DNA of 64,000 nucleotides from Carcharhinus longimanus (GCA_030264375.1 JASCQW010000119.1:10523346-10587345); one strand, 5' to 3'; shown: positions 862 to 63,989, counted from the stretch's first letter. Made by a program: numbers and translations. The notes: generated from the sequence alone by a model not told the origin.

Positions 862-876
862 ACAAAATCAAGAAAG
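862..876 (+). CDS. Microexon 1 (15 nt), xKIKK
   Basis: catttcttccctctttgtaacttggtttccag|ACAAAATCAAGAAAG|gtaaag; phase 1, open. Confidence 0.75.
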
Positions 877-2314
877 GTAAAGATTTGAACATGATAGACA
901 TGCATTCTTGTTGCAGTAATACGATGCTGATGTAGAAATATTCATAGTGCAAAAAAGGTTATCACATTGGCTATATGTGAACTGTTAGATATAAAGTAAC
1001 CAATATTGAACATGAGTTGTGTAACATGACCGACCTGCACAGAACGATGATCCTGTTATCCTAGCGGCTAAGGCAAACTATGCTGAACTATTGTTCCTTC
1101 CTACACCATGATTCTAGCTGACTGTCCGTTCCAAATACGTTTATAACAACAAGTTATTGTCCCAGCGATCTACCTCCTTTTTCTTCCCAGCAGTTCTTTT
1201 CAGAAGGGAATAATGAAAATTTGACACGTCAACTCTAAATAATGATAAGCTGCATTGGCATTTATATCTATCCTACGATCGATTTCCATTGATTATTCCC
1301 TTCATTCCTGCCAATAATCGAAATGTCAATACAACCTTTTGTCAATGTAACCTGCAGTTTTCAAGTTCATTCCCTCAAATATGTGTCCGTTATTTTTCAG
1401 TAGTCGGAAATAATGTATTTCTTGGTAGTGAAATTCTTTTGACTTGCTCAATTATACTGAAGTAAAGAAGTACAGCCTTCAACTCAGAGCTCGGGAGTTC
1501 ACACGAAATGCGATCAATGCACGGATGCCAGATGAATCTCTGGAAATCAGAAAGCCGCAGAAAGAAAAAAAAATGAGCCTGTGTTTTAAATGCATTTGCG
1601 ATATAAAATTAACATAAAATTTGCACTTGAATACTGTGGCTTGTTGAAAGAAGAAATACAGCAGAATGTGAAATTAATTCGTCAATAATCTTGTTTTACC
1701 GCACAACATGAAAAAAACGTTGAATGTGCTTTTGCTGTTCCTAACCGACCATCAATTTGAGCCATTGTGTCTGTTCAGGACTGTAACCCTACAGCAATTA
1801 CGTTCTCCTTTGTGACCTGATATTACGTGTTATCATTGCTTTGATAAAACGCATTCTGATACATAAGTTTTCCTCGCACTATAAACTTCGTTAGAGACAA
1901 TTCTTTATAATTCATTCTAAAATATAACCTGATGTTGCCCTGTAAAGCCTTCAATAGCCATAGCTAATTTTGATTTAAAAGGTGTAGAGCTGAACATTTT
2001 ATCTGCTACAACTCATATGGTGTCGGGTGTCCCACAGGATAGTTGGGGGTGGACGGGATATCAAGAAATTTGCCCCACTGACAGTTAAACAACAGTGATG
2101 TATTTCCATCTCCAGATGGTAGATGGCTTGCAGGAGTCCTTCTAGCTGGCAGTGCCCAAAAACAAAATGCTTGTCGGCCTCGAATGCAGAAGTTGAGTCT
2201 TTGTTTTGGGTCTACATTCTTAAGGAAATAACTGATCACCAGACCATTTTGATAATATCGGCAATGGCTGCGTGACTATCATCTGTTCAACTCGTTAAGT
2301 TTAAGCTTATTCAT

Positions 2315-2585
2315 CAGTGTTAGAAGTAGCCTTACGTTAACACTGCGATGAAGTTACTATGAATATCCCTTAACTCTCACACGACGATATCTGGTCGGTT
2401 ACACTGTGAGAGAATTCAGCATGGCCAATGCACTTAACCAGCACGTTCTTCGGCCTGGGGAGCAATCTGGAGAAACCCCCGCAGATAGGAAGAGAAACGT
2501 GATGAGTCCGAACACACAGAGACTCAAGCCGGAAATCGAACGCGGATCCCGGGAGCTGTAAGGCAGCAGTACTAACCAGTGTGCG
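2315..2585 (-). mobile_element. HE1-like tRNA-derived SINE
   Basis: Reverse-complement tRNA head (aagccggaaatcgaacgcggatccc...gcagcagtactaacca). The tail is shared with the copy at 5235. Confidence 0.8.
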
Positions 2586-2693
2586 AATTCGAGGGAATTT
2601 TATTCCTTTAAGGAGATTAACTTCCCGTTTTCAACGAAAATCGCAAAAAATATAGTGAACTTAGCATTGAGTGTCAATCCGTTATTCTTCCAG

Positions 2694-2720
2694 AACTTGA
2701 AGTAAAGGAAAATCTTGATG
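2694..2720 (+). CDS. Microexon 2 (27 nt), ELEVKENLD
   Basis: ttattcttccag|AACTTGAAGTAAAGGAAAATCTTGATG|gtgaga. Confidence 0.8.
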
Positions 2721-3932
2721 GTGAGAAAAGAGATTACCATTGCTGAAGAGAAACATACGGGTCTAAAATCCTAAATGATATCTCCTTGTGTTTATGGCAA
2801 ACCTGAAGAACTTCACACTGTTATCGGACAACAAATTTTATGAAATTGGGCACACAAAATGGAAGCAAACTAAAGCTACCCTGAGAGCCCTCCACTAAAA
2901 TCACACAGTAGCAGGCACTGATCAGTAGGCAAGAGCATGTTTTTAGAATGCAAATGAGGACTAGCACCTTAGGGAAATTGGACAGGATGGCACCTACAGG
3001 AACAAAATTAAAGAACACATCCCCACCCCATCAAAATCAGCAGTTCTAAACCAGTCAAACAACCCATGGAGACACCTAAAATTAACACAGTTAAGGAAGC
3101 GTCCCTGGCTCCTCAAAACTCTTGAGATCAATAACACACACATGGTTCAAACTCCAGAGATTCTAGACCATTGACAACCAACCAGACAGAAACGATTCAC
3201 ACACACTTAAAACAGTTGCTCCAACACTCGAAAACATCGAAACAGGATGGCTGAAGTCAAATACTGTAAATAACAGATTAGCTAACAACACCCTCATTCA
3301 AGTAAATTGCTCCTGATTGAGTTTGTACACATGAAATTAGCAACAACTTTTTAGTTGTTGGCAAATAGCAGTGTACCTGTTTATCATTACAGTCGCTCGC
3401 GAGTTCAATGATTCTTAGCTAAGACGTGACTTCAAGTGCATCTGAATAACGAATATCCGATAGCAGCCGAAATATTTTGTACAAATGAGGACTAAAGTTC
3501 ATTCATCCCTCTTCAGATTTAGACAACCGTAATGAGTCCTTCTATAGAGACGCCTCGACTTCAGAATTACAAGCATTACTTCAATTTCCTGCCTAACCTT
3601 TCTTTCCTTTAATTAAATTTGTAGCTCCACCATCCGGGAACGATGCAATACTCCAAATCTGACATACTGTCTGTCCAGGATGCACCGAGTTCAATCGAAG
3701 TTCCTCATGTCCTCAATAGCCTTCTCTTTTGACTGTCAAATTATTTCCTCTGTTTTTGTACTTACGAAAAAAAACTTTAAGCTATACCGAAGATCTAAAT
3801 CACAGATCAAAATTGTGGATCCCTGTTTTCATAAATTTGAATGCATCCGAAGGAAGGTTTCCGCCCTATTCACATAATCATTTCCACCTTGAATGAGTTC
3901 ATTATTCATTCTTCTTCTGCTTTAACGTGTAG

Positions 3933-3959
3933 ATGAGGAGGCACGAGAGAAAAGATCAG
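3933..3959 (+). CDS. Microexon 3 (27 nt), DEEAREKRS
   Basis: cttcttctgctttaacgtgtag|ATGAGGAGGCACGAGAGAAAAGATCAG|gtatca. Confidence 0.8.
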
Positions 3960-4671
3960 GTATCATTCTGTGATAAATGCGTCTTATGCTGCAAATGTGA
4001 ATTTTGCCCCTGTTTTTGAGGGGGAGTCATGTAACACAAGGGCTATTTATCCAAATGTTTATCATTATATGGTCGCCACATAGCTAGCAGAGTAAAGGGG
4101 GCGCATAGAGTTGCGTCATTTTGTTTGAATGGGTAGCGAATATGTTGTCAAAGGGCTCATATGAGATTAGGGAGCAGAAATAGCTGAAACTATTAAGACT
4201 ATTTAAATATTGCAATTTTGTTCTAGTTTGCAATGTAGGAAACAGAGGCGGCACGACAACATCAGAAAAAAAAACACAATGGTGCAATACATCTCTGGTG
4301 TCTGATGAATAAGCGTTCTCTCTGGCATTTAAAACATCCACATAGAATGACAGGTAGGTTTTCGTATTAGTGACCTGTTAGACAAGTAGCACGTGTGTTT
4401 CAGCGCATCTTTAACTGCTTAAAGTTGCAATCCTTTATTTTCAGATCACATATAATAAATTTGATTTGAGAAAACAATCATAGGACACGGCAAATATTCA
4501 GAAATCATTTTGCTAAACTCCATCTCCAAAATATTCTATCGCCCGGTTTCAACTCTAGTCTCACTTATCAACTTGTGTTTGTAAACGCGGTGTATTACAT
4601 TGAGAGGAAGGTACCCTGCTGAAATGTAAACAATTGTTTTGTTATTGTAGTTGTTGTTCTGTTCGGTACAG

Positions 4672-4707
4672 AAATAACGGGTTTACAGGAAAATATAAAA
4701 GATACAG
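4672..4707 (+). CDS. Microexon 4 (36 nt), EITGLQENIKDT; donor reads AT instead of GT
   Basis: ttgttctgttcggtacag|AAATAACGGGTTTACAGGAAAATATAAAAGATACAG|atatgc; fits the 36-nt family (I2, L5, I9, D11) and fills the expected slot. Confidence 0.6.
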
Positions 4708-5234
4708 ATATGCACACAACTGAAACTGGAGCGCAAAGACAAGTTGTTGTTTAGCTTCCAACATCGATCGCTTGTCTGACATTCAGTATTTTCACTAGTG
4801 ACGTATAAAGTACGAGTTTTCTATAATGTATGTTCTGGTCACAATGCTTTAATTAAAAATTAATACATTGTTTTCCTTGCAAAAATTCAAATCAGCTTCA
4901 ACGAACATAAAAATGAGAACAAAATCCTAAAATCTAAATGAAGTCATTTTTTTCCTGACTACACGCTTTGCAAAGTATAAATGCAATTGTAAAGTATACC
5001 ATAACTCCAACCAATAAAGGGCAGAACTCTTTATGCGGTAACTGTATTTAGTATCATCTTGACATTTCAAAAATAATAACGTTAAACCAGTTCTCAATTT
5101 GCATGACCTCTTGGCCAACCAACTCTACCGGTCAAGTATTTCAAAGCAGGCCTCATTTTGGATACCGGTAGTGCAAGTATCGTTCTCGAAACTCTTTGCG
5201 AATGCATTACGTCCAATTAAGATGAAGTTAACAT

Positions 5235-5470
5235 TTATGTATTAGTCACAAGTAAGGCTTACATTAATACTGCAATGAAGTTAATGAGGAATTTCCTGTA
5301 CAGGCCAATACACCTAACCAACACGTCTTTCAGACTGTGGGAGGAAACGGAACACCCGGAAGAGACCAGAGACGGACATAGGGAGAGCGTACAAATTCAG
5401 CAAGACAGCGATCCAAGCCGGGAATTGAACCCGGTGTTGTGAGGCAGCAGTGCTAACTACTGTGCCACCA
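5235..5470 (-). mobile_element. HE1-like SINE (same tail type as the 2315 copy)
   Basis: agtaaggcttacattaatactgcaatgaagtta...ggaggaaacggaacacccgg...gggaattgaaccc...gcagcagtgctaactactgtgccacc. Confidence 0.85.
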
Positions 5471-5874
5471 TCCCACCTACATGTAGCCACTGAATCGGGT
5501 TATGCCTTAAAAAAGTAACACACTGAGCAAAGTGTGCATGAATTGGGTATTTGGAATTTGTTAGAGCACATTGCATTTTTTTAATGTAAACTGTGCATCG
5601 AGACGTGCGTTAACATAATGCCATTCATAACATAGCAGCACCAGCATTTTGCATCACTGCAAAATATGTAAATATTTTTTGCACAAATGTAACTTTCATT
5701 TGTTTATGAGCAAATACATTTTGAAGCTATGTGTGCCTCTTCTGCCCTTCCAACTGATCATTTCGTTTTGGATCATGATTGTGCCCCATATTATGCAGTT
5801 CATTTAGTGTCTGAGAAATGTGGTAACTGTTTCACAGCATTGAAACATTATTTCTAAATTCTGCATCACATTGA

Positions 5875-6200
5875 AACATAGAAACCCTACAGTGCAGAAA
5901 GAGGCCATTTGGTCCATCGAGTCTGCACTGACCACAATTCCACTCAGGCCCTACTCCATGTGCCTAATAATCCCCCTAAACTATGCACCTCAGGACACAA
6001 AGGCAATTTGTGGCATTGCCAATCAACCTAACCCAAACATCTTTGAACTGTGGGAGGAAACCGGAACACCCGGAGAAAACACACGCAGACACGAGGAGAA
6101 TGTGCAAACTCCACATAGGCAGAGACCCAAGCTGGGAATCGAACCTTCGCCCCTGAAGCTGTGAAGCAGCAGTGCTAACCACTATGCTATCGTTCTGCCC
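5875..6200 (-). mobile_element. HE1-like SINE
   Basis: catagaaaccctacagtgcagaaagaggccatt...ggaggaaaccggaacacccgg...gggaatcgaacc...gcagcagtgctaaccact. Confidence 0.9.
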
Positions 6201-6454
6201 ACAAGTGGCATTTTCAGTTCGGTTATCTCTTTGTTTTTTCCCAGACCATGTGTTCACTTGAAACATTTCAGACAAGTTCAGACAAGAATTTGCAATCGTT
6301 ACACATGCCCTTCACACTGTTGTGGTGAGACAGATTCTTGTCTGCAAACCCACTAACTTGATAGGAACTGTGTTCAATATATTTTGAACAGCCCCATTGA
6401 TGCAGCTATTATAGGTTTCAATCAAAGAATGCATGGCCTTCTTCACACCTCACA

Positions 6455-6750
6455 GAATCATGCAATTACATAGTTCTTACAGTGCAGAAGGAGGCCACTC
6501 AACCTATCGAATCGGTACAGACCATAATCCCACCCAGGCCCTTTTCCCGCAACCCGCCATATTGACACTGCTAATCTTCCAGAAACTACGGTTAATTCAA
6601 CATTAAAAGTCAACACAATCCGCTCTTCTTTGCACAATGGCAGGAAACCGGAGCACCTCGGGGAGACTATACAGACTCGGCAACGATAGTGACATGACGG
6701 CGATGCGCGTGGGCGCTGTGAGGCAGCGGTGCTAACCAATATACCGCCTT
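6455..6750 (-). mobile_element. HE1-like SINE, degraded
   Basis: tacagtgcagaaggaggccactc...cataatcccacccaggcc...ggaaaccggagcacc...gtgaggcagcggtgctaacc. Confidence 0.8.
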
Positions 6751-6838
6751 GCATCAGCCATAATCTTATTGACTGGTGGGGCAGGCTCGAAGGGCTAGAT
6801 GGCCTACTCCTGCTCCTATTTCTTATGTTCTTATGTTG
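6750..6838 (+). mobile_element. CR1 LINE 3' tail
   Basis: atcagccataatcttattga...gcaggctcgaagggctagatggcctactcctgctcctatttcttatgttcttatgtt. Confidence 0.8.
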
Positions 6839-8302: not shown

Positions 8303-8329
8303 AGGAACAGCTGCGAAAGAAAAACAATA
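8303..8329 (+). CDS. Microexon 5 (27 nt), EEQLRKKNN
   Basis: tttataatttgaaacag|AGGAACAGCTGCGAAAGAAAAACAATA|gtaagc. Confidence 0.8.
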
Positions 8330-10733
8330 GTAAGCAAGCATCCTACAACGAATTGCCTTGAGACATTTAAAATCGTTTGAATTCAGTCCATTTGGCATTG
8401 TCAGCACATTGTTTTAATGCTTTCCTCGCTGAAATCAATAGTATTGACAATTAGATTCTAGTCCTAAATGAAACTTCAGTCCCTCCCGTAAATATCTATG
8501 AACATGACTATTTGTTTTCGAACTTCAGTATAAACTCTGTGGGAGGCCTTTGCAAAGCTCGCGGGCCTACATGCGACTGCCAATAATGTCTTTGCATGTT
8601 AAGAACATCACTTAGTTAGAGCTATCCTTCTATTCCTCACCAAGTTTTAAGCAATTTAAACCAGACATAGTGAAATTACACAGCCTCATACCATTTGATT
8701 TACAAATAAATTCAGCCGACAGCAACATACCTGGAAATATTCGTTATAACAATACATAAAGCAACACTGTGCATAATCCATCCAGCTGCTCACCACGAGT
8801 TCCAGTAGCGCACCCCCCCTGCTCCGCCCCTTTGCCCACCACCCCACCCCCTCCACCTTTTACGCGCAATCACACCACTAAATTCCACCTCTCCTCAAAT
8901 TGCTGCAACGATCTCATTAGCTCTTCCAACATTAGGTTCGAACCGATGGTCACATTTGTGGTGTTCTGGGAGAGTGCTGAGGTGATAGTGGTGGTGGAAG
9001 GCGGGGGGAGTGAATTGGGAGGAGGATGCGTGCAGAAAGGCGCTGTTGATGGCGCGAGCAGATGACACCAGTTGTTCTGTGGATACTTAACTTGCAAGGA
9101 GAAAACGACATTTTTTAATGAAGCAGGCGATTCGAAAGACAACTGTGGGACATAAAGAATGTGGGGAGATGATAGAGCGCAGAAGCAGGAGCATGGTGTG
9201 AATTGCATGGCAATGATGTGTTGCATGCAATTGATTTTAACCTTTTTATATGAACGTGCAGTGAATCAAAATTAAACGTTCATTTCCAATGGTATTGCTT
9301 CCCGTCGATGTTGAGGTTCCCAGAAACCAACAAAAAATGATTTTCACCTCATTTTCAGCTTCCATTTCACTGCAGTATATGTTGGGAACAATTTCACAAT
9401 AGAAAGGGCACGCAAATTAATCCGGAGAATTGAAATGACCGGAACGGCACGCATTTCTCTGGCTAATTTGAACAAAATATCGAATGACAGGTTTAACGTT
9501 TAATTGATAGAGGAATTTGAAATACTGAAAGTTTGAAACGTGACAATCGACACAAAACTTTGCATTGCAGCAAACATCGAGAAATTGAAGATAGCAGCAA
9601 AGAGATATGCCAAAATCGTTAAAGCCCGAAATCAAGAACTTGAACCAGCTTATAATTAGACCGAGCCAGTTTCGGCACCATTTTCAGAAATGCTTTCTTC
9701 AAAATCACCTGAGCCTTCGAATGGTCCCTGAAGATTGCAATCCAGCTCCTCACCACCAACTCCAAATTGAACAAAATACAAACGTTATTGTCTGAACATG
9801 AATTTTATGTGATGCTTCATCCTTTCCTGGAATTTGTGCACAATGCCAATACTTATGAACTCCCGTGCATGAAGCTTAGGTAACGGTGCTAACAATCTCT
9901 GCTTTCCATTAATAAATTGCAGGGCATTGACTCCAGATAGACTGTCCAGTTACGCTATTTAGAACCAATTAACTATCAATTTTTCCAATATGTTTGCTTT
10001 CGCTCTGATTGACGGGAGCATTATGGTCTAACCATGGAGTTAAGCTTTCCCAGGTTAGGATGAGGGTGGCGTCCCGAAGGCCAAACATATAGAAGGCTGC
10101 TCGGACTATAATTAGTCCTGAGTTTGGAGGGAGTCGGTACAAGGCCAAGATGCGTCCTGAATGTTGGCCTCGTTGTCCAGCAGTCAGCAGTGCGGTTCAG
10201 TCTGAGGGTCTGATTTTTTTTTTAATTTGTGTGCGTTACTTTAGTCCATATTCGGGCAGAGACTGAGGTGACGATGAATTAGAAGTCGGGTCAGATCTGA
10301 CTGAGGGCATGTTTACAGGAGCTGAGGACGGAGGACATCTGTGAGTACGGAATGCACTGGCAGCATTATTCCCTTGGCAAAATAAGCGTTTGAACAGCAG
10401 CGACACCAGTGAACTCATAAGGGACGTCATGCCAATTCTACGACGACGATTGGCTTCGATTTGTAAATAAAGCAGAGGTGAAGAAGCGCATGTTTCGCAT
10501 GTTAAAAGGAACACAAATAAAACGAATGGAAATGTATTTCTTTATGCGGCGAATAGACGTGGCGAGCTATAGCCCACTGAATTTTAGAGGAGTGAATTAT
10601 AAAAAAAATCTACCGTTGATTTGTTATGTTCAATTTCTGTTTTTAAAAGATGCGTATCACTCGTTTTCTGATATCCTTCAACAACAGCGGTTGCCAATAT
10701 AACAGTATACATTGATTTTTTTTTATATATCAG

Positions 10734-10769
10734 AACGAACAAATGTGCAAGCATTACTTGCAGACTGTC
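10734..10769 (+). CDS. Microexon 6 (36 nt), KRTNVQALLADC
   Basis: tttttttttatatatcag|AACGAACAAATGTGCAAGCATTACTTGCAGACTGTC|gtaagt. Confidence 0.85.
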
Positions 10770-12859: not shown

Positions 12860-13200
12860 ACGGCACGATAGCACAGTGGTTAGCACTGCTGCTTCCCAGC
12901 TCCAGGGACCTGGGTTCGATTCCCATCTCGGGTCACTGTCTGTGTGGAGTTTGCACATTCTCCTCGTGTCTGGTGGGTTTCCTCCGGCTGCTTTGTTTTC
13001 CTCTCATAGTCCAAAGATGTTTGGATTAGGTTGATTGGCCATGTTAAAATTGTCCCTTCGTGTACTAAGATGCTTAGGTTAGAGGGATTAGCGGGTAAAA
13101 TGTGTAGGGATATGGGGGTAGGGCCTGGGTGGGATTGTGGTCCCAGCAGACTCGATGAGCCGAAGGGTCTGTTTCTGCACTGTAGGATTCTATGATGATT
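12860..13200 (+). mobile_element. Near full-length HE1-like SINE
   Basis: A-box/B-box head ggcacgatagcacagtggttagcactgctgc...gggttcgattccc, and CR1-type tail ctgcactgtaggattctatgat. Confidence 0.92.
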
Positions 13201-13319
13201 CAAGTCGGTAGTATTGAAAAATTGACTCCTATTATAAAATAGAACGTAGAATTACATATATGAAAATTGCGTGGGAGTAAGTTCTACACGATGTCCCATC
13301 ATCTCCAATGTTTGCTTCA

Positions 13320-17863: not shown

Positions 17864-17890
17864 ATGAACAGTTAAGCGAAATGATCAAAG
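17864..17890 (+). CDS. Microexon 7 (27 nt), HEQLSEMIK
   Basis: ttgcattttctaatag|ATGAACAGTTAAGCGAAATGATCAAAG|gtattg. Confidence 0.85.
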
Positions 17891-17904
17891 GTATTGGTTT
17901 TAAT

Positions 17905-17905
17905 G

Positions 17906-20230: not shown

Positions 20231-20266
20231 AAATGCAATATTTGAAAAACCAACTTGAAACTAAAG
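20231..20266 (+). CDS. Microexon 8 (36 nt), EMQYLKNQLETK
   Basis: ttgtatgccacag|AAATGCAATATTTGAAAAACCAACTTGAAACTAAAG|gtaact. Confidence 0.85.
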
Positions 20267-23421: not shown

Positions 23422-23448
23422 AAGAACGATTGATGGCTCAAAGCAATG
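23422..23448 (+). CDS. Microexon 9 (27 nt), EERLMAQSN
   Basis: gttctttcttatag|AAGAACGATTGATGGCTCAAAGCAATG|gtatgt. Confidence 0.88.
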
Positions 23449-25673: not shown

Positions 25674-25709
25674 AAATCGAGAAACTGAAAACAGATGTGG
25701 AAGATAATC
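25674..25709 (+). CDS. Microexon 10 (36 nt), EIEKLKTDVEDN
   Basis: ctctttttttgtccacag|AAATCGAGAAACTGAAAACAGATGTGGAAGATAATC|gtaagt. Confidence 0.9.
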
Positions 25710-26400: not shown

Positions 26401-26427
26401 AATTTGCGTTGACAAGTTATCAAAGCG
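26401..26427 (+). CDS. Microexon 11 (27 nt), QFALTSYQS
   Basis: tgtttttttttag|AATTTGCGTTGACAAGTTATCAAAGCG|gtaagt. Confidence 0.85.
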
Positions 26428-33545: not shown

Positions 33546-33581
33546 CTGTTGAGAAACTGAAAAGAAAAGTCAAAGATCTCG
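33546..33581 (+). CDS. Microexon 12 (36 nt), AVEKLKRKVKDL
   Basis: cgtttgcattcacag|CTGTTGAGAAACTGAAAAGAAAAGTCAAAGATCTCG|gtaggt. Confidence 0.9.
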
Positions 33582-34923: not shown

Positions 34924-34950
34924 ATAATCAACTGTATCAGACGGACAGTG
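34924..34950 (+). CDS. Microexon 13 (27 nt), DNQLYQTDS
   Basis: tcttgtttgcaatag|ATAATCAACTGTATCAGACGGACAGTG|gtaaga. Confidence 0.88.
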
Positions 34951-37315: not shown

Positions 37316-37351
37316 AATGCCAGCAATTGAAGAAAAATCTTGAAGAAAAAG
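37316..37351 (+). CDS. Microexon 14 (36 nt), ECQQLKKNLEEK
   Basis: attgatccctag|AATGCCAGCAATTGAAGAAAAATCTTGAAGAAAAAG|gtacat. Confidence 0.85.
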
Positions 37352-39640: not shown

Positions 39641-39667
39641 AGAGCACATTCACAATGAAAGATAAAG
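39641..39667 (+). CDS. Microexon 15 (27 nt), ESTFTMKDK; GC donor
   Basis: ttttaattattttag|AGAGCACATTCACAATGAAAGATAAAG|gcaaga; the only fitting 27-nt candidate I found between exons 14 and 16. Confidence 0.72.
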
Positions 39668-40863: not shown

Positions 40864-40899
40864 AATTGGAGGAAATGAAAATGAATCACATTGATTGTG
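40864..40899 (+). CDS. Microexon 16 (36 nt), ELEEMKMNHIDC
   Basis: tgtgtttccccatcag|AATTGGAGGAAATGAAAATGAATCACATTGATTGTG|gtgagt. Confidence 0.9.
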
Positions 40900-45371: not shown

Positions 45372-45398
45372 AAGAAAGATTAAACATGAACGGCAAAG
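45372..45398 (+). CDS. Microexon 17 (27 nt), EERLNMNGK
   Basis: ttttgctcttcacag|AAGAAAGATTAAACATGAACGGCAAAG|gtaaat. Confidence 0.9.
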
Positions 45399-46567: not shown

Positions 46568-46603
46568 AGATACAAAAACTGAAGGACAGTTTCAACGATC
46601 AAG
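46568..46603 (+). CDS. Microexon 18 (36 nt), EIQKLKDSFNDQ
   Basis: aatattctgcag|AGATACAAAAACTGAAGGACAGTTTCAACGATCAAG|gtgagt. Confidence 0.9.
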
Positions 46604-47094: not shown

Positions 47095-47890
47095 CTATGA
47101 CGTTTCATTAGGGTGTGTACAGATGATGTGTTCTCATCAGCAGTGCGTGGACTGATGTAGACTTGCTCGAGAGAGCTCTTTAGTGCCTGGTACTTTGTCT
47201 TGACATCGGATGCGTAATATTCTGCGAAGACAAGTCGTGTGGAAATGATTGAGCTGTCCTGCATGCCTTCAATACACAGCCCACGTTTCACAGGGATACA
47301 AGATGGTAGTGAGTACCGCGCCGCTGTAGACCTTCATTTTTGTTGCTGGGCTGATTCCTCGAGGATCCCATACGGTGGAGCGCAGTCTATCGAAAGCAGA
47401 ACTTGCCTTGCTATTCTGCTGTTAACTTCTGCATCAATAGTCACTGCTTGGGGGAGGGTGCTGCCAAGATAACTGAACTGGTCAACTGCCTTTAGTTTCT
47501 GCTCTTCGATTGCGATTATGAGTTTTGTGTACGGTGCATGAGCAGCAGGCTGGTGCATGACTTCGGTCCTTTTAATGGTGATGGTGAGCCCAAAGTTGTC
47601 ACAAGCCGTGGAAAATTTGTCCATACTGACTTGCATCTCTGGCTCTGAGCCAGCATACAGGGCGCANNNNNNNNNNNNNNNNNNNNNNNNNNNNNNNNNN
47701 NNNNNNNNNNNNNNNNNNNNNNNNNNNNNNNNNNNNNNNNNNNNNNNNNNNNNNNNNNNNNNNNNNGAGTCCAAAGTTGTCACAAGCCGTGGAAAATTTG
47801 TCCATACTGACTTGCATCTCTGGCTCTGAGCCAGCATACAGGGTGCAGCCATCGGCAAAGAGGAAATCTCTCAGAACAGTCTTTTTCACT
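47095..47890 (-). mobile_element. RTE LINE reverse transcriptase segment (inverted 5' part of an insertion)
   Basis: VLRDFLFADGCTL...SMDKFSTACDNFGLTITIKRTEVMHQP...VDQFSYLGSTL...IDAEVNSRIA. Confidence 0.92.
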
Positions 47891-48312
47891 TTGTCAGACG
47901 AGCGCATACCCAAGCAGTTCCTTTTTTGGGAGCTCTCTGCTGGAAGACGCTCGCACTGAGGGCAGAAGGAAAGTTTTAAAGACACACTCAAGGCCTTCCT
48001 GAAGTCGCTTCACATTGACACGGCCAACTGGGAATTGGTGGCACAAAACCGCCCGACCTGGCGTTGCCTCCTCCACAAAGGTTGACAAACTCACGAAGCA
48101 AGGTATATTGCTGAAACACAACTGAAGCGCGAGCTGCGCAAGCCCAGAGACACCAGCGCAACAACTACAGTGTCTACACAAGTCTGTCCAATATATGCCA
48201 GGACATTCCGTGCCCGAGTTGACCTGATCAATCATCTTCGGACACACAGCAACCAGCCTCAAAATGACTAATAGTATCGAGGTCCTCATCGACGACGATG
48301 GGCGAATAACGG
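47891..48312 (+). mobile_element. RTE LINE 3' end (C-terminal region with C2H2 motif and 3'UTR)
   Basis: SDERIPKQFLFWELSAGRRS...FKDTLKAFLK...WELVAQNRPTWR...CPIYARTFRARVDLINHLRTH; tail catcgacgacgatgggcgaataac. Confidence 0.9.
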
Positions 48313-49179: not shown

Positions 49180-49206
49180 AACAAAAAATTGGCAAAAAAG
49201 AGAAAG
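49180..49206 (+). CDS. Microexon 19 (27 nt), EQKIGKKEK
   Basis: tacttcttcacag|AACAAAAAATTGGCAAAAAAGAGAAAG|gtaatt. Confidence 0.88.
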
Positions 49207-49504: not shown

Positions 49505-50925
49505 ATGAACTTGTTCAAAAGTGCTGCAGGGAAAAGCCAGGGAACTACAGGCCGCTGAGCCTCACATCTATGGCGGGTCAGTTGTTGGAAGATATTTTGA
49601 GAGGCACGATCTCTTGGCATTTAGAGAGGCAAGTACTGATTAGGGACAGTCAACATAGTCTTCAGAGTGGAAAATCATGTCTCAAAAAATTGACTTAGTT
49701 TTTTTTTTAAGGGGAAATCAGGAAGGTAAATGAGGGCAGTGCAGTTGGCATTGTCTACATGGGCTTTAGCAAGGCCTTTCACCAAGTACCGCATAGTAAG
49801 TTGTTGCATAAGGTTTCTCACCAAATCCAAGGTGATTTAGCCAAATGGGTACAAAACTGGCTTGATGACAGAAGCCAGAGGGTTGTTGTGGAGATCTGTT
49901 TTTCAAACTGGAGACCTATAACCAGTGGTGTGCCGGAGGGATCCACTGTTATTTGTCATTTATATTAAGGGTATGGATGAGAATATTGGAGACATGTTTA
50001 GTAAAATTGCAGATGACACCAAGATCGACGGCATAGTGGACAGTGAAGAACGTTATCTCGGATTGCAACAAAATATTGATCAATTGGGCAGTGGGCTGAC
50101 GAACAGTGGACGAAGTTCAATTTAGACAAATGCGAGGTGACGAATTTTGGTAGATTGAAAAAGGGCAGGACTTATTCAGTTAATGTTGGGTTTTGTCGAA
50201 AGTTATAAATCAAAGAGTTCTCGAGGTACAGCTTCATAGCTCTTTAAAAGTGGAGTCACATGTGGACAAAGAGGTGAAGAAGACATTCAACATGCTTGGT
50301 TTCCTTGGTCAGAACATTGAGTACAGGAATTGGGACATCTGGTTGGAGTTATACAAGACATTGGTAAAGCCACACTTGGAATATTGTGTTCAGTTCTGGT
50401 CATCCTATCATAGAAACGATCTGATTAAGCGAGAAAGAATGCAAAAAAGATTTCCTGTGATGGAACTGGGATTTGATATTTTGAGTTACAAAGAGAGTCT
50501 GGAAAGCTGGGATTTTTTTTTCTCTGGACCACATCAAGCAGAGGCGTGATCTTATAGAAGCCTATTAAATAATGATTGGCATAGATCAACGAGATAATCA
50601 ATGCTTTTTTTCCCCCAAATGTAGGGAAGTCTATAAGTAGAGGGCATAATTTAAGGCACAAAATGAGAGATAAAACAAGGGTGCACAGAAAAATTGTTCA
50701 CGCAGAGGATGGTGAATGTCTGGAACAAGCTGCCAGATCTAGTAGTAGAGGCACGTGGAATTATGTCCTTGAAATACTGTTTCGACGGTTACATGAGAAA
50801 CATGGGTATAGAGAGATAAGGGCCAAATGCGGGCAACTGGGACTGTCGTCGGGTCCATAGAAAAGGGTGGCATGCGCAAGTTGGGTCAAAGGGTCTGTTT
50901 CCATGCTGTAAACCGCAATGACTCT
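49505..50925 (+). mobile_element. 5'-truncated CR1 LINE (RT domain to 3' tail), frameshifted
   Basis: PGNYRP; MGFSKAFHQVPH; WVQNWLDDRSQRVVV; SGVPEGS; SKIADDTKI; LYKTLVKPHLEYCVQFWS. Confidence 0.95.
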
Positions 50926-51004
50926 TTGAAATTTTTAAGCATATTGTAAATTCAGACAAGGGAAAGCAGCTACAAAAATCTACATGACATGTTCGCCACC
51001 AGTT

Positions 51005-51240: not shown

Positions 51241-53289
51241 GCGCAGAAACATTTGATTAAATGTATCATTTGGTAACTCCTGTGCATCCACAGACTACCT
51301 GCTGTACGTATTGCAATACGCATTGGGTGCAATTCGAAAATTGACTTTTCTGTTCGTGAGCCAGGCAGGAGCATTAATGTGGCGCTACATTATTTCTGGT
51401 TGTAATTTTTACCATCTGTAAATGCATTGGGCCATAACTTGTAACATATCAGAAAACAATGATTGTTTGGAAGCAAAACACATGCCTACTGCTCACAACT
51501 CAATTTACCGAAGCTGATTGGGACTGCATTCGGTGAATTCCTGCACTCACCAGCGGAGTTCATCGGCATTGATTCGAGGATTTCATGCCACATTTTTTAC
51601 TAAACTAGCTGCTCTACAGCCTTGTAGTATAAAACGTGAAGTAAAAGCGACAAAGGAGAGAAGATATGCCCCAGGGTGGTTGGGAGGGCCACAAAGCGAA
51701 TGGGGGTCGCAGGGTACGCGGGGTTGTGGTATGGTTAAGACGTCAGGGAGTGATGAGCGGGATTATCGGTACCGGTTTCCCAAATTAGGCAGCGCGTGAT
51801 GCGTTGGATATCGCAGTTTTAAGTATGTGACAAATTGCAGACGGGGAATTCAAATGCGAGAGGTTGTTGTAGGCCTCAGGCGGATGGGGGTTGTTCAAGT
51901 TCTCGTGTGCTTGGTGTCGGTATGAGGCGTACGAATTTCAGGTTCTTTAGGGAGGACAGTAAAATCGCTGGCGAATGACGCATCGTCATGGCGGGGAATA
52001 TGAGTGTTTTTTTGGGATTTTGTGTTCTGTGTTGCATTCTGTGGGGACTGGGGAGGAGTTCCAGCTCGGTCGATGGACGAGTGTGGATGAGCATTGGGCC
52101 TGCATTTATCTGGATTTGGGGTAGCCCTGCTGTACGGTTGGGTAGTCGGTGATGCCATGGATTGTTGGCGATTTGGGGAAGACCATGGCAGAGTGGGCGG
52201 ATAGAGGAGGCCTTCAAGCAAGTGTGTGTATACGGGATTTGATTCCCCCAGAAAGGATTTTAACTCTCTGGGGAGCCTCATGTGTGGATGGGCTTGAACC
52301 GAAAATGCAATTGCGTTGATGTTAGAAGATGTTTCTTTCTTCCAAAGATTTCTGAATTACTATTCGAAATCCGGGTCAGAGAAATGTGCACTTAACGATA
52401 TGTTTAACTTCAGACGAGTCCCGTTGCAGCACATTCACTGCAAAAAAAAAGCTCGTCAGCTTACTGACCAACGGGGTTGATCCAAGAAATATTCGCATTT
52501 ACTGGTGGGGTATCAACAAAATTTGATGATGGGTAGCCAAGTTAGTAAGGGGCAAATTTGCCTTACATCGACGTTGCAACACCACGGAATCACAACATCT
52601 CTAAGATGTGAAAGTGGTGAGTTGAAACACTCGTTGGCCTGACTCCTCGCCTTCCTTGCCATAGGTCTCCCGGAGACGGGAGGTGGCGCAAGTTTGCTGG
52701 CAGTGGGATTCTCTGATCACAAACCTGTCAAAGGAAATTCCCACTGCTCTCACCCAACGTTGATAGGTATGCCTGGGTACGCTACCACATGACAGGAGAA
52801 TCCCATCGCCAAGGAGAACCAGAGAAGCGGTATTCCTATTTGTTCCATAGTTTCCAATTTTCGATGTAAGCAATTCCCTCTGTTCTACAATTAGTGCTCT
52901 TCTCCACAATGACAGAAGAGGTACTCTCCCACATTCCTCCTTAGAAGTGAACATTCTAATTCGTGGAAAAATGTTTCCAAATATCGTTGTGCCCAATCCA
53001 ATGTTTTCTCACCTTTTTCTATTGTGTGACGCTGAGAATCGTATAATAGATTTCTAACCAGAGCCGCGTATCATTTCAGCACAAACCCCTTAGGTTTGTA
53101 CTTACAATTCTCTCAATAAAACCCAACATACACTGTCATATTAGCTATTTTCTCCTAGCTCACTTGCATACTGGTTATCTACACACACATAATTAGTAAG
53201 GGTGTTCAGGAACAGAGAAAATTGAGTTATGTGCAATATAACCATTACGTTACATTCCTTGACCATGTGTTTAGTATGAAAGTGTGTTG

Positions 53290-57500: not shown

Positions 57501-58315
57501 TCCACACGGCGATTCTATATTGGTATCTATGTTGGGTTAGCTAAAATCACATCCGGCACCTCACTTCCACAGTTCAACATAATACCACGCAAAGAATCCT
57601 GGGCCAGTTCCGTTCAGGGATAAATATTAAGGATGTAATATATCAATGAACGAATCCCAGTGGTACAAAGGAACTGGCGACTTCCCTTAAAACATATTTC
57701 CACGCGAACATTTATCTTGCTTATACTGCTATAACTGCCTGCACTTCCAAGCAGCACTGAGAAGAATTTAGTGAGCGCAATGTTTGATGTTTTGCTCGCT
57801 GCCTTTTGTTTTAATGGTGCTCCTTATATTTAGATTGACGTCCCACGGAATCTTACCAAAATCTTTGATAATAAGGTATATGGGCCATTGATTCTTTTAC
57901 AATCCCGAGAAGAATGACCTGCAGCCGCTCCATGACATCTTTCACCCTAACAGCATTGTGGCAACATACCATCATTACGGGTGCACGATCGGTATTTCAC
58001 TGTATCGCTCCTTGATCCCTTCTGTACATCTGAGATACCCCTGGTGCCAGTCACAAGGCTCTAAGGGCACTGATCTCAAAAGTAAACTCACCACCTTTCA
58101 AAGTAGAAAACCAATGTGTCAATGCGGGCCCAAGGATTCCTCCACAAAATGTGCCGTCATGTTGGTATGACTGACCCCCAACATATTCCGTTTTTGCCAT
58201 CTTATGCGGCAGTCTTCTTCAACAAATTTTCACGAGGAACTATGTTACTGCCCATCTAGTAATTCCTTAGATAGCAACACTTTTCTAATTACCTTTAATT
58301 ACATCTTTTTTCTAG

Positions 58316-58351
58316 CGTTCAAGACATTGGAAAGGGACGCAAGTGACAAAG
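58316..58351 (+). CDS. Microexon 20 (36 nt), AFKTLERDASDK
   Basis: catcttttttctag|CGTTCAAGACATTGGAAAGGGACGCAAGTGACAAAG|gtgtgt. Confidence 0.82.
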
Positions 58352-58669
58352 GTGTGTCTGCAATGTTGATGGTTACCGTTAATTTGAATAACAATGTACA
58401 AAATTATGCTGTGATCCCGTATGACTCTGCCTTCCATCTAAACAGGAGGCAGAATACGCCGATATCTGCCGTCATCTAATCGTGACATTCACACATCAAC
58501 AGTGGTCAGCAGACCTGCCCTGACTCAAGTAAAATCTTGGAATTTCTTGGATAACCCCCATAATGTAAATATTGGTCCAGTTGAAATCACAGTTTTTTAA
58601 CAGTGCTTAAGTGATTAATCTCATTGTCACTGCCCGTCACTTGAAATGATCCTGAGACTGTTTCTCGTT

Positions 58670-58850
58670 ATTTTCCAAACTGAGGAGAGATTGGGTAAAC
58701 TACGGTTGGTCTCCCTGGAAAGACGGAGAATAAGGAGAGACCTAATAGAGGTGTATAAAATTATGAGGGGTATGGATAGGGTAAACAGTGGAAAACTATT
58801 CCCAGGTCGGAGGTGAAAAACACGAGGGGTCACAGATTGTTCTTTGTTCT
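58670..58850 (+). mobile_element. CR1 LINE 3' fragment
   Basis: Encodes EERLGKLRLVSLERRRIRRDLIEVYKIMRGMDRV. Confidence 0.9.
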
Positions 58851-58907
58851 TTGTTATTTGATCCTGTGAGATCAGATATGAATTGGCAGCGAAATTGAAA
58901 CAGGGAG

Positions 58908-59225
58908 GGGCGGCATGGTAGCAGTGCTGCCTCACATGTCCAGGGACCCGAGTTCGATTCCCGGCTTACGTGAAGAATGCGTGTTGTCCCCGTGTCTGCG
59001 TGGGTTTCCTCCGGGTGGTCCGGTTTCCTCTCACATTTTGAACTTGCACGGCTTAGGGTGATTGGTCTTTGTTGGTGTCCCGCAGTGTCCCGGGATGCGT
59101 TGGTTAAAGGAATTACCTGTGTAAATATTTCGGATTATAAGGATAGGACCTGGGTGGGATTGTTGTCGGTGTAGACTCGATGGACTGAATGGCCTCCTGC
59201 TGCAATGTAGGGTTTCTATGATTAT
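58908..59225 (+). mobile_element. HE1-like SINE
   Basis: gggcggcatggtagcagtgctgcctcac...gagttcgattcccggctt...ggcctcctgctgcaatgtagggtttctatgatt. Confidence 0.9.
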
Positions 59226-59759
59226 CTTTAGAACCTGCACTGGTTTGATCAAACCTTAAAAGCCTTTCAACTGGCGCAGAAATGATTCAAGATTATCCTC
59301 AAACGAAAATTGAATTTGCTTAAGTCTGGAAAGAAGTATTGCAATTTTTCCAATGGACCTAGTAAGGACTAAGGAAACATACAAGAAAAACAACTATTTT
59401 CACGACGTAATTCGCTAGACTAAATAATTGGCAACCGGTCACAATGATACTCAATGTAGCTATTGTTCAGCGAATCCTATGAAAATTGGTAGTATGAAAT
59501 TAAGATAACCGTAAAATTGCACTGATGTTATTCAATATTATGAAATTTTAGTTATAGTCTTTCTGAATGACTTTGTATGTCCACCTCTGGGCACTACAGT
59601 TTGGAAATGATGGAAATGTTTTTTAGGCGTGGGAGGAGTGATGAATTGGATTAATTGTGCATTTGTGAAAATTTATTCAAGTGGATAAACGATAGAAGCT
59701 GGCTCTCTCCACGTCAGGATAGAAAGGATTACATGGAAAGTTAATAGATATTCTAATCA

Positions 59760-60105
59760 TATAATATTTAGTGCAGAAGAACACATTTGACCCTTCCAGT
59801 CTGCACCGACTCTCTGAGAGAGTATCTTACCCAGGGCTTCTCCTCTGCCTTATGCATGAAAACCCATACATTTATCATGGCTAATCCCCTTAATGTACAC
59901 ATGCTGGGAAATTAAGGGGCAATTGTGCATGTCCAATCCACTTAACTTGCGCACTGTGGACTGTAGGAGGAATTTGGAACACCCCGAGGACACCCACAGA
60001 AGCAGAGAGAGAATGTGTAAGCTCTACACCGTTATCAGACGCCGGATTTAATTCCAGTCCCAGCCCAGCCGTTGTGAGGCATTAGTATTGGCCACGGTGC
60101 CACCG
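59760..60105 (-). mobile_element. Degraded HE1-like SINE
   Basis: agtgcagaagaacacatttgaccc...ccaatccacttaacttgc...gtgaggcattagtattggccacggtgccaccgt. Confidence 0.8.
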
Positions 60106-60512
60106 TATCTCATCAAAAAAAAAATTTTATAGATCCCGTCATTGGAATCTGTTTCAACAGGCAGGAACATCATTCTGTGGCTACCAAAAAAAATTACCAA
60201 TGTGTAAGTGAAATATGCAAAGGAAATTGTTTTACTTTCAACGGCGTAACTGTTACAATCTGTAAAGTGCGCTCGCTAAATAATGTGCAACTCTTCTCTG
60301 TCGTATCTTTGCAGGGAAATTTCAATGTATAATCGAAAGGAAGGATAAGGCATTTCAGTTGGAGAAATAACGGAGCTTGAGAACTAGGTTCACAATATCT
60401 GGGGCCCAATTAGCTCACATTGTACTCAATATTCCTTAAGCGATTTGAATATTCTTGCCGATATGAGTGTAGTGCGCAGTTTATTTAGTTGTTTATTTCC
60501 TTCACCTATCAG

Positions 60513-60539
60513 AAAAAGAATTGGGGAACAAGGAAAAAG
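60513..60539 (+). CDS. Microexon 21 (27 nt), EKELGNKEK
   Basis: tttccttcacctatcag|AAAAAGAATTGGGGAACAAGGAAAAAG|gtaatg. Confidence 0.88.
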
Positions 60540-61720
60540 GTAATGACGTGAACACGGGTGTTTTATTTGAAACAGCCTCGTCTTATATCAAATTATATCA
60601 AATGTCAGTATTTTTTTTCCAAAGATATGTCATAAGAGAAACGTGGAATACAATTTTACAAAATTGCACGCTTTTGTAATGCATCTAAATCCAACTTAAT
60701 ATGCTGCAAACTGGGAATAAAGGCGTGTTTCTATGTCAGGTGAAGTGACTCGACCAAAATGTAACTTTGAAAATGTAAGGCCGTGGAGCAAAAACAAATT
60801 GTGACGTTAATTAGCTGCTGTGCTATTCGGTGGCATCTTCACTGAACGCATCCTGATGAAGATGATGTTCCGTGATAATTGTCAATGAGCAACGTCACGG
60901 CTGTTTAGACATGACACTGAGCATTTAATAAAGACTTCCAGTCTAGAAATTTAAATATTATAAGTGCATTTTTCCATTCATATACTATTTTTCGAAGAAT
61001 TCTGAGAAAAGTAACATATTTTCATTTTTTTTTCTGTTTATGGTATGTGCCTTTCATTGCAGTTACACTAAAATCATATCCCGCCCTTGCGACAAAAAAA
61101 AGCGAATTAAGAGGACCACGGAATATAGTGCAGATAAGGTGGAGTTTACACGGTGTGTTTAGAGGTAATCACTGTAAACATTAACTTTGCATTAAATGTT
61201 GATACCGCATCAGAAATGTTGATAGTCACAGCATTTTACAGCATGAAGATAGGTTATTCGGCCCAGCTTGTACATGCCACATTTTTAACCATTAAGGTAA
61301 TTCCAGTTTCACACGATTGTCCCATAACCGTCCATGCTCATCTTAGTCTGCTGACTATTTTCATATATACATATATACATATATATGTATATATAAAAAT
61401 ATAATTTATGTAAATATTAAGAGTGCTTGATCCCCGTAGCTCTACATGTATATATTCTGTTACGTCAGTTTATTTTTTGTTCCTGTGAAGTTGAGTACAC
61501 AGATCTAGTTCATTTTTTTTCGTCAGTGTGCCGGTGGTTACTTATTTTCGGTACCTCAGTGTAATTGTTCAGAGCTTGTTACATCACGGTCCGACAACAG
61601 AGGCTGGAGTCAAGTGCAGACACTTCCACGTTCGTCCTGTGTCACGGCTTTGTAGATTCAGGACATTTACTGCAGATTGCCCATGATATTCCCGATGCCA
61701 AATTTGCTATTCTTTCACAG

Positions 61721-61756
61721 AACTGGAGAAACACAAAAACAATCTTCAAGACTGCC
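61721..61756 (+). CDS. Microexon 22 (36 nt), ELEKHKNNLQDC
   Basis: ctattctttcacag|AACTGGAGAAACACAAAAACAATCTTCAAGACTGCC|gtgagt. Confidence 0.9.
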
Positions 61757-63623
61757 GTGAGTAGAAAGAAGTTGCGTTAAAACTAAACCTTGAAGTTTCA
61801 GCTGATCAACTCCTTCGACTACGTCGATGGTATTTTCATTCTATCGCTCGTGTGCACAATCCCATCTCAGTGTTAATGACGGCACTCACGGTGCTTCAAT
61901 GAACGTCACCCACGTTATTTTACACCGAAAAAAAATGAGGAGATATTCAAATATTGGATGCAGGTAAATCGGTTGTATTTTCTCTGACTTCTTACGGGCT
62001 TATCACAGGAAATAGACGGCAGTGTTTGATCAGTTATTCAAATATATGCAAATTTTATGTATTTATTTATTTGAACTCGCATTAGGTATTTAGCAAAAAG
62101 TAGAAATATTTTGTCTTGTCCAAGTATTTAGGCCTGCAACATTCTGCACTGCCTCCTCACTTATCCTGTTATGAATACTTCTCTCTTTTTTGTACTTTCC
62201 ACTAAGCCAATTGGTATTGATATCTGACTCTATCTTATCGTGTTTGCGAAATGGTCAGCTAATACATTCACCAAAGCTCGTGAATCTGTTAGATTACGTT
62301 TCATGGAATAAATTGATCTTTCAAAGAGTCGGTGCAAACTCAATATGCGGAAAGGCATCTTTCTGCACTGTGCAGTTCTATTTTCTGTGGGACTCGTGTT
62401 TTTTATTTCTATAACTCATTCAAATCTCCTCCTAGATGTTTTTACTTCTAATAAAACAACCCAACTTCTCCAAGCTGCCGAATAAATAAAATGTGTCATC
62501 TGCAAAAACATTTCTAAACCGTAAGCAATACAGACTCTTTATCTCCATATTACCAATGTTCATAGTTATATTAAAAAAAAGTCATGCTCAGGTCCTGTTG
62601 CAGTCCTGTGCATGATCAGCCTTTCTTCCATCCTCCTTTATTCTATGTCACTATAAATAAAGCCCAGAATATTGTAAGTATTCCTACCTTATGTTGTCAA
62701 CCGTCATGCTAATTTCAACGAAAGTTGCAGACAAACAAAAGTTTCATCTGCTCCATTGTTTATTATTTGCTACTTATTTTTAGACTCTTATTGCGTTTTT
62801 TTCGACCTACAGTCAACACTCAGCACCTCCCCTCCTTGACTTTAAATTACCATCTATCTATCGAATACATCAAATTCTCCATGTTCATTTGAATTTCGAA
62901 ATTGTCCCTTCATATTTAAAATGTTTCCAAGTCGTGTGCTATTCTCAAACTTTGAAGTTATTTGCTGGACACCAAGGACCATATAGTGAATATATTTTGT
63001 AATNNNNNNNNNNNNNNNNNNNNNNNNNNNNNNNNNNNNNNNNNNNNNNNNNNNNNNNNNNNNNNNNNNNNNNNNNNNNNNNNNNNNNNNNNNNNNNNNN
63101 NNNNNNNNNNNNNNNNNNNNNNNNNNNNNNNNNNNNNNNNNNNNNNNNNNNNNNNNNNNNNNNNNNNNNNNNNNNNNNNNNNNNNNNNNNNNNNNNNNNN
63201 NNNNNNNNNNNNNNNNNNNNNNNNNNNNNNNNNNNNNNNNNNNNNNNNNNNNNNNNNNNNNNNNNNNNNNNNNNNNNNNNNNNNNNNNNNNNNNNNNNNN
63301 NNNNNNNNNNNNNNNNNNNNNNNNNNNNNNNNNNNNNNNNNNNNNNNNNNNNNNNNNNNNNNNNNNNNNNNNNNNNNNNNNNNNNNNNNNNNNNNNNNNN
63401 NNNNNNNNNNNNNNNNNNNNNNNNNNNNNNNNNNNNNNNNNNNNNNNNNNNNNNNNNNNNNNNNNNNNNNNNNNNNNNNNNNNNNNNNNNNNNNNNNNNN
63501 NNNNNNNNNNNNNNNNNNNNNNNNNNNNNNNNNNNNNNNNNNNNNNNNNNNNNNNNNNNNNNNNNNNNNNNNNNNNNNNNNNNNNNNNNNNNNNNNNNNN
63601 NNNNNNNNNNNNNNNNNNNNNNN

Positions 63624-63900
63624 NTATCTACCTGTGACTTAAACACATTCAGCGAGGTAGCCTCCACCACTTCAATGGACAGAGAATTCCAGAGGCTCAC
63701 CACTTTTTGAGTGAAGAAGTTCCTCCACAACTCCGATCTAAACTGCTTCCCCCACCCACCCCCACCTCCCTTATTTTGAGGTTGTGCCCTCTAGTTCTGC
63801 TATCCTTTCTAAGCAGGAAGAATCTCTCTCCCTCTACTATGTCTTTCCCCTTCATTATCTTATATGTCTCTACAAGATCCCCCCTCAGCCTTCTAAACAC
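63624..63900 (-). mobile_element. CR1 LINE 3' fragment running into an assembly gap
   Basis: RRLRGDLVETYKIMKG...RTRGHNLKIR; WRNFFTQKVVSLWNSL. Confidence 0.92.
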
Positions 63901-63962
63901 TGTCATTGCTTAAGGATCCGTGTAACGTCACACTTCGCATTTGTTACTCTGCATTTATCTAG

Positions 63963-63989
63963 AACTGATGCTAAGCAACGCAAAAAAAG
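63963..63989 (+). CDS. Microexon 23 (27 nt), QLMLSNAKK; gene continues beyond the window
   Basis: ctctgcatttatctag|AACTGATGCTAAGCAACGCAAAAAAAG|gtaagc. Confidence 0.88.

Follow-up and report, generated by a model that had tools for sequence, protein, structure and literature searches.

A predicted giant coiled-coil gene built from alternating 27/36-nucleotide microexons and a B30.2 exon in the shark Carcharhinus longimanus

The window analysed here is a 64,000-nucleotide (nt) stretch of the Carcharhinus longimanus genome (GCA_030264375.1, JASCQW010000119.1:10523346-10587345; G000:C119:10523346-10587345 in the 2.68-Gb genome). It contains an array of tiny exons on the + strand, predicted to be part of one very large gene which encodes a coiled-coil rod and a C-terminal B30.2 domain. 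An initial annotation of the window had proposed 23 tiny, stop-free, phase 1-1 exons between positions 862 and 63989. A scan for AG-exon-GT units on the + strand recovers all 23. They consist of one exon of 15 nt, 12 exons of 27 nt, and 10 exons of 36 nt, 699 nt in total. Joined in order, they contain no stop in the phase-1 frame, versus 19 and 18 stops in the other two frames.

The microexon array and its terminal exon

The exons of the window are as follows (position, strand, description; evidence from the unit scan, the splice scores, the reading frame, and the nucleotide profile explained below).

862..876, +, 15-nt candidate exon, phase 1; in frame, placed by its splice sites alone (scores 2.6/3.5), the least certain exon
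2694..2720, +, 27-nt exon; unit scan, frame, profile
3933..3959, +, 27-nt exon, opens the strictly alternating run; unit scan, frame, profile
4672..4707, +, 36-nt module-like exon with a non-canonical AT donor; frame, outside the profile selection
8303..8329, +, 27-nt exon with a weak acceptor (score -4.6); frame, profile
10734..10769, +, 36-nt exon; unit scan, frame, outside the profile selection
17864..17890, +, 27-nt exon; unit scan, frame, profile
20231..20266, +, 36-nt exon; unit scan, frame, profile
23422..23448, +, 27-nt exon; unit scan, frame, profile
25674..25709, +, 36-nt exon; unit scan, frame, profile
26401..26427, +, 27-nt exon; unit scan, frame, outside the profile selection
33546..33581, +, 36-nt exon; unit scan, frame, profile
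34924..34950, +, 27-nt exon; unit scan, frame, profile
37316..37351, +, 36-nt exon; splice scores, frame, profile
39641..39667, +, 27-nt exon with a GC donor; splice scores, frame, profile
40864..40899, +, 36-nt exon; unit scan, frame, profile
45372..45398, +, 27-nt exon; unit scan, frame, profile
46568..46603, +, 36-nt exon; unit scan, frame, profile
49180..49206, +, 27-nt exon; unit scan, frame, profile
58316..58351, +, 36-nt exon; unit scan, frame, profile
60513..60539, +, 27-nt exon; unit scan, frame, profile
61721..61756, +, 36-nt exon; unit scan, frame, profile
63963..63989, +, 27-nt exon, the final one of the window; unit scan, frame, profile

These two lengths are in clear excess. At a splice score of 6 or more, the + strand of the window has nine candidates of 27 nt and six of 36 nt, while every other length (44 lengths) has at most one; on the - strand, no length has more than two. 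In the 324 kb around the window, a leave-one-out nucleotide profile combined with the splice score selects 80 of 3,398 + strand candidates versus 2 of 3,308 on the - strand. Because the profile was seeded on the window exons and iterated, the reading frame is built into it; candidates were not filtered by stops. Of the 80 selected exons, two have a stop in the phase-1 frame versus 51 and 38 in the other frames, against a background of 35–46%. Four of the 23 window exons (862, 4672, 10734, and 26401) are left out by this selection. When the 73 best exons are put in order, 49 of the 72 neighbour pairs switch between 27 and 36 nt; shuffled orders average 36.0, and 49 is reached by 16 of 10,000. 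Chance or artefact as the origin of the array is ruled out by the length excess and the single-frame openness of the 80-exon selection.

The heptad register is maintained from 3933 to 65884. The residue columns quoted in the initial annotation for the 27-nt and 36-nt exons are identical to the recomputed ones. Position 7 of the 21-residue module is mostly Lys (23/41), and Leu occupies position 21 in half of the cases (16/32). The longest strict 27/36 run of the region from 20 kb upstream to the B30.2 exon lies inside the window. Outside 3933–65884 the alternation breaks, with 27-27 runs and exons of 30 nt and 42 nt.

Downstream of the window, about 30 more exons are followed by a terminal exon. 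The last 27-nt exon is 150,563 bases from the window start, and the next, phase-1 acceptor opens an exon of 172 codons with a stop:

L028:3733-4253 = G000:C119:10681078-10681598, +, terminal PRY-SPRY/B30.2 exon, 94 kb beyond the window end

A single AATAAA is seen about 230 nt past this stop. SPRY is the sole Pfam family scored on the terminal exon (E-value 5.7e-17), and the B30.2 domain of BTN3A1 (PDB 4n7i; E-value 5e-32) is its top solved relative. An AlphaFold model from an 8-row B30.2 alignment reached a predicted local distance difference test score of 38.6 and was discarded. The exon is the only + strand B30.2 match between 9.02 and 11.29 Mb on scaffold C119. Since it shares the strand and phase 1 of the microexons, and relatives have the same architecture, it is considered to belong to the array. 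The initial annotation had suggested an inspection of the flanks for B30.2, lectin, and immunoglobulin (Ig) exons, among others.

On the + strand, the array extends over at least 639 kb, from the farthest upstream match at G000:C119:10042909 to the B30.2 stop, and the window is about the inner tenth of the gene. In genome searches with exon patterns, the matches falling in C119 6.5–10.6 Mb are 9 of 17 (control 9), 14 of 34 (control 17), 16 of 18 (control 2), and 9 of 24 (control 1). The 16 of 18 belong to the 27-nt pattern, and each of them is upstream of a family B30.2 exon on the same strand. Array exons were also read directly at 10.088–10.144 Mb. The exon density is 73–86 per 318 kb; by extrapolation over at least 639 kb, the whole gene would contain about 150–175 exons and encode a rod of 1,500–1,800 residues.

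Self-comparison reveals how the array has grown. Intragenic duplicate blocks of 3.7 kb and 2.1 kb are 90% identical and contain two exons each, introns included, as expected from the earlier suggestion that the rod was extended by duplication of a two-exon module. Older intragenic duplicates are 65–79% identical. Exon length is retained in 7 of 8 duplicate pairs, and one copy is deleted. The duplicate of an exon-bearing block at L030 ~3150-4030, 106–107 kb upstream of the window, has its 36-nt exon deleted.

Other sequences are seen in the introns of the array. The window introns contain coding fragments of mobile-element type at 47334-48009 (-), 50184-50549 (+), and 51876-52356 (-), which we take to be LINE-like (long interspersed nuclear element) reverse transcriptase and endonuclease. 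A 120-bp interspersed repeat at ~61225-61345 of the window has at least 39 further copies in the genome. An open reading frame fragment 60 kb upstream of the window (L012 ~9300-9800, +) presumably resembles the transmembrane subunit of an endogenous retroviral envelope. A broken retroelement with reverse-transcriptase-like and GIY-YIG-like frames (L041 ~1500-3100, G000:C119 10,116,500-10,118,100) is presumably Penelope-like. A short C2H2 zinc-finger-like remnant is found 89.5 kb upstream of the window (L010 ~485-540, +). The 36-nt pattern also has 15 matches off the scaffold (control 1), such as C109:50812392, C133:14086395, and C162:113441667. Some of these look like coding exons of other coiled-coil genes.

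A gene family in cartilaginous fishes

The five closest B30.2 exons in the genome, 37–45% identical, are all on C119, at 6.33, 8.53, 9.02, 9.09, and 11.29 Mb. Array-type pattern matches are present upstream of four of them on the same strand, and none is seen for the exon at 8.53 Mb. Among database proteins with a named source, the closest relatives all come from chondrichthyans (Callorhinchus, Scyliorhinus, Chiloscyllium, Leucoraja, Narcine, and Hypanus), in addition to two Logan proteins. A tree was built from 55 B30.2 rows: 6 own and, picked from 279 fetched proteins, 13 relatives, 13 butyrophilin (BTN), 21 TRIM, and 2 NLR. The 19 family rows, from C. longimanus, chimaera, skate, ray, and shark, form one clade with 100/100 support on a branch of 0.95. 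Every search made gave chondrichthyan relatives, and the initial idea of a lineage-specific chondrichthyan protein is consistent with this.

The window gene pairs with scyTo_0006617 (99/94), its probable orthologue, which is annotated as a B30.2 exon alone, 190 aa in length. The suspicion that automated annotation had missed the gene is thus largely borne out. Relatives are named TRIM39-, TRIM58-, TRIM69-, or A33-like, and most family models are short, at 129–460 aa. No full-length orthologue was found among 352 candidates of 302–2,000 aa. Multi-SPRY proteins dominate a profile search of longer proteins, with one family member in the best 120. The family has six genes on this one scaffold, several of them very large, and is conserved from chimaeras to sharks and rays, while annotation mostly reduces it to lone B30.2 exons or short TRIM-named models. 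No account of it was found in the titles and abstract openings of the literature searched, a search mostly outside subscription journals; supplements of shark genome papers may list such genes.

In all seven longer family models, SPRY/PRY is the only domain above or near the cut-off. In four genes of three species (one in Callorhinchus, one in Scyliorhinus, and two in Narcine), in-frame blocks of exactly 9 residues distinguish the predicted RefSeq isoforms, and one 6-residue block is seen likewise. RefSeq isoforms of this kind are usually backed by RNA evidence. A 9+12 module profile derived from C. longimanus matches three times in a skate model and twice in one Narcine model, where paired matches are spaced by exactly 21 residues. 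In another Narcine model it matches three times, and in a Callorhinchus model of 1,697 aa eight times (shuffle maximum 5). This last model, XP_042192744, contains a rod plus B30.2 and is named 'nuclear-pore anchor-like'; its rod is interrupted by a tandem 8-residue Thr/Asp/Pro-rich repeat. In the ESM atlas, chordate clusters of 1,277–1,802 aa with SPRY score 0.79–0.92, and two of them are automatically named like long coiled coils. As a lead, this suggests that databases contain long rod-plus-SPRY models, perhaps also from outside the sharks.

Dense B30.2, B-box, and BTN-type IgV and IgC matches are found at G000:C81 ~85-102 Mb, which is probably the TRIM/butyrophilin region of the genome. One 27-nt pattern match is at 90.98 Mb there. 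A look-alike of the basal pair of the family is at C81:94.27 Mb, inside this cluster (assigned by eye, outside the tree), and suggests where the family arose. The chimaera member in the clade would place the origin before the split of holocephalans and elasmobranchs.

The B30.2 domains of the family share basic residues. The phosphoantigen pocket of BTN3A1 consists of R412, R418, R469, H351, H378, and K393, according to excerpts of PMC4303140. The spacing of these six residues agrees with the alignment to PDB 4n7i. The K393, R412, and R469 columns are all basic in 16 of 20 family rows versus 1 of 246 other B30.2 rows, and at least two of them are basic in 20 of 20 versus 12 of 246. The 246 are those of 450 other rows that are ungapped at these columns; the rows are not independent, and those used for comparison may be misaligned in the loop columns. 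A conserved anion-binding site in the family is a reasonable reading of this alignment.

Proposed structure and rival explanations

Our overall interpretation, to which we assign a rough probability of 0.6, is one giant cartilaginous-fish gene that derives from a butyrophilin-like tail and encodes a coiled-coil tether in the cytoplasm, carrying an anion-binding B30.2 head. The symmetric phase-1 27/36-nt microexons would very probably be spliced in order onto the final B30.2 exon. Each 27+36 pair would add three heptads, and a charged coiled-coil rod of the extrapolated size is the probable product; at a rise of 0.15 nm per residue, it would be roughly 220–270 nm long. It is probably kinked where the alternation breaks. 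By analogy with chicken BG, as presented in excerpts of PMC5938342, it is probably dimeric. Since every exon is frame-preserving, duplication and skipping would change the rod length at little cost. Such tuning could combine the block duplication seen in the array with exon skipping, for which cassette use is seen in the models of relatives.

We lean slightly toward a protein with no Ig ectodomain, RING, or B-box, acting as a cytoplasmic tether or scaffold like a freed butyrophilin or BG tail. A soluble BG tail regulates actin-myosin in gut epithelium (excerpts of PMC4046983), indicating that a freed tail can function by itself. More tentatively, paired C-terminal B30.2 heads may bind an anionic ligand via the conserved basic pocket. 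As to origin, we propose that a butyrophilin-like gene of the TRIM/BTN cluster expanded its heptad and linker exons before the chimaera-elasmobranch split, and that relocation to the C119 scaffold and further expansion there came later.

Several observations weigh against this interpretation. The initial annotation described good splice sites throughout and an unbroken heptad register. Not all of the splice sites are good: ATATGC instead of GT is found directly 3' of exon 4672-4707, the next exon at 8303 has a weak acceptor, and the donor at 39641 is GC. The register is kept, while its regularity was overstated: four of the six core positions of the module (4, 11, 14, and 18) are mostly hydrophobic. 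Exon versus intron identity in the duplicates is 96 vs 93, 90 vs 92, 81 vs 77, 83 vs 73, and 80 vs 80%; no excess of exon conservation over the flanking intron is found in them, indicating weak constraint on residues. What selection seems to preserve is the length and phase of the exons, their freedom from stops, and the heptad pattern, more than any particular residues. The interval C119 10,085,001-10,145,000 yielded no first exon. About 260 kb of the span is bridged by pattern matches only, and assembly gaps could hide a gene boundary. The 9+12 profile finds nothing in three of the seven family models and matches once each in 4 of 10 TRIM controls. The tree does not put the family clade within the butyrophilins. 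The window gene has R, R, and T at the K393, R412, and R469 columns, so the last one is not basic. H351 and H378 are absent in the family, with mostly Ser or Thr there (Arg at the H378 column in the window gene), and the family profile lacks the insertion that holds R418.

A rival idea divides the 639-kb array into several tandem genes or regards part of it as dead, with the window exons not joined to the B30.2 exon. Beyond the irregular donor at 4708 and acceptor at 8303, this idea draws on the near-neutral divergence of the duplicates with one exon lost, the sparse stretch with a long N gap 122–160 kb upstream of the window, and the shortness of most family models. By eye, no in-frame GT with a good donor is close to exon 4672, and an AT-AC reading does not fit the U12 donor consensus. 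The exon is probably skipped, or an allele or assembly variant; joint skipping of 4672 and 8303 would drop 63 nt and keep the register. Coding-frame stops in 2 of 80 exons, far below the background, speak for a living array. There is a single B30.2 exon for the entire + strand array, the pattern match at 10,329,729 bridges the stretch between the parts that were read directly, and a rod plus B30.2 is present in the 1,697-aa model from Callorhinchus. Several genes or a dead array are thus rather improbable. A membrane-anchored BG/butyrophilin-like receptor is somewhat less improbable, though still unlikely; here a divergent Ig and a transmembrane exon would be at the 5' end, and the array would be a huge cytoplasmic tail that ends in B30.2. 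Six family genes lie on C119 6.3-11.3 Mb, yet neither a BTN-type IgV (68 of 68 candidates scored) nor a BTN IgC (C2-set_3, PF22705; 57 of 57) is found there, and no general V-set maps to this region among 150 of 928 candidates scored; the BTN-type IgV search is a word-based first look at a scaffold with assembly gaps. An Ig domain, BTN-type IgV included, is seen in none of the seven family models. Some database models start with a hydrophobic, signal-peptide-like segment, but these segments end at an apparent acceptor and are, in our reading, probably intron read-through. About 51 kb scanned upstream has no convincing signal-peptide or transmembrane exon; this stretch is itself still inside the array, and the 5' end, where a receptor would have its Ig, lies beyond it. 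BG tails of many phase-split heptad exons and butyrophilins ending in B30.2 (excerpts of PMC5938342 and PMC4046983), the BTN-like linker, and BTN3A1 as the top PDB match would suit such a receptor.

It is very unlikely that the gene encodes a TRIM-type E3 ligase or restriction factor whose coiled coil is hugely extended and whose RING and B-box exons lie at the 5' end. No B-box is found on C119 6-11.3 Mb among 150 of 277 candidates scored, a coverage which leaves this explanation some room. RING and B-box are absent from all seven family models, and no genome search aimed at RING was made. True TRIM matches to the B30.2 domain are at most 36% identical. The linker has Trp or Phe at -12 from a conserved Leu in five of seven family models and two of three chimaera BTNs, while Trp is found at -16 in each of 16 A33-type TRIMs. 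At -12, three further BTN rows have Lys, Phe, and Pro (fused or multi-domain models, treated as uninformative), and three TRIM39-like rows have Leu or Arg at the linker position. The TRIM-like names of the relatives fit the TRIM explanation, as does the position of the family clade, which is on a long branch and joins TRIM and BTN rows of the chimaera at an unresolved fork; the BTN rows themselves are not one group. Altogether, the features compared give modest support to a butyrophilin-tail origin.

For the preferred single-gene interpretation, the proposal of a hidden gene encoding a coiled-coil rod is supported by the exon excess, the open frame, the heptad pattern, and the family relatives. 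Its boldest extension, ancient giant splice-tunable rods from butyrophilin tails with B30.2 heads binding phosphorylated metabolites, is improbable, and phosphoantigen sensing by these domains is a long shot. If true, phosphate-sensing B30.2 pockets would not be confined to mammals, and the pocket of this family, either ancestral or convergent with that of BTN3A1, would sit on a molecular ruler coded by microexons. The basic pocket bears on anion and phosphoantigen sensing by B30.2 outside mammals, and hence on the rise of butyrophilin-type sensing.

Comparison with known systems

Class IV TRIM proteins (TRIM39, A33-like, TRIM21, and pyrin) also have a coiled coil followed by B30.2. In the shark gene no RING or B-box was found in the searches above, the microexon rod is several times longer, and the linker is other than the A33 type. 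The stalk of CD23/FCER2 shares the 21-residue coiled-coil period. This parallel, drawn in the initial annotation, does not hold, because the terminal exon is B30.2 and not lectin; in addition, the 63-nt unit is split over two exons in the shark gene. Enterophilins of guinea pig are soluble, combine a long leucine zipper with a C-terminal B30.2, and are much shorter than the predicted shark protein. Enterophilin-1 binds sorting nexin 1 (excerpt of PMC13749957). Enterophilins are mammalian, and are likened to the shark gene by description only.

The parallel with BG and butyrophilins, also drawn initially, is apt. Butyrophilins have heptads followed by C-terminal B30.2 (PMC4046983 and PMC5938342, in excerpts), a similar 9-residue linker, and basic residues at the three BTN3A1 pocket positions (PMC4303140, likewise). 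Unlike the shark gene, they have Ig ectodomains, a transmembrane helix, and few heptads. The shark gene has more than 100 heptads in the part read and a predicted total in the hundreds, a split 9+12 module, and a B30.2 clade of its own; no Ig match was obtained in the searches made, and H351, H378, and R418 are lacking.

Chicken BG has a long coiled coil from many tiny split-codon exons, variable in number and duplicating fast, in the excerpts of PMC5938342 and PMC4046983. The BG exons described there are 21 nt (some 18 or 24 nt) and number 13–36 per gene, compared with exons of 27/36 nt and a predicted 150–175 in the shark gene. No excess of 21-nt exons is seen among the window candidates. 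BG has IgV and a transmembrane region, and its tail is contrasted in these excerpts with the B30.2-ending tail of butyrophilins, while the shark gene ends in B30.2. The two-exon 27+36 unit is not described in the excerpted accounts of BG and butyrophilins. Heptad microexons, and heptads plus B30.2, are a known design principle; the function of the shark gene is a prediction. On the features compared, the gene is not assignable to BTN, BG, or TRIM, and can be considered a new variant of the BG/butyrophilin heptad-exon design and an extreme case of protein building via microexon duplication.

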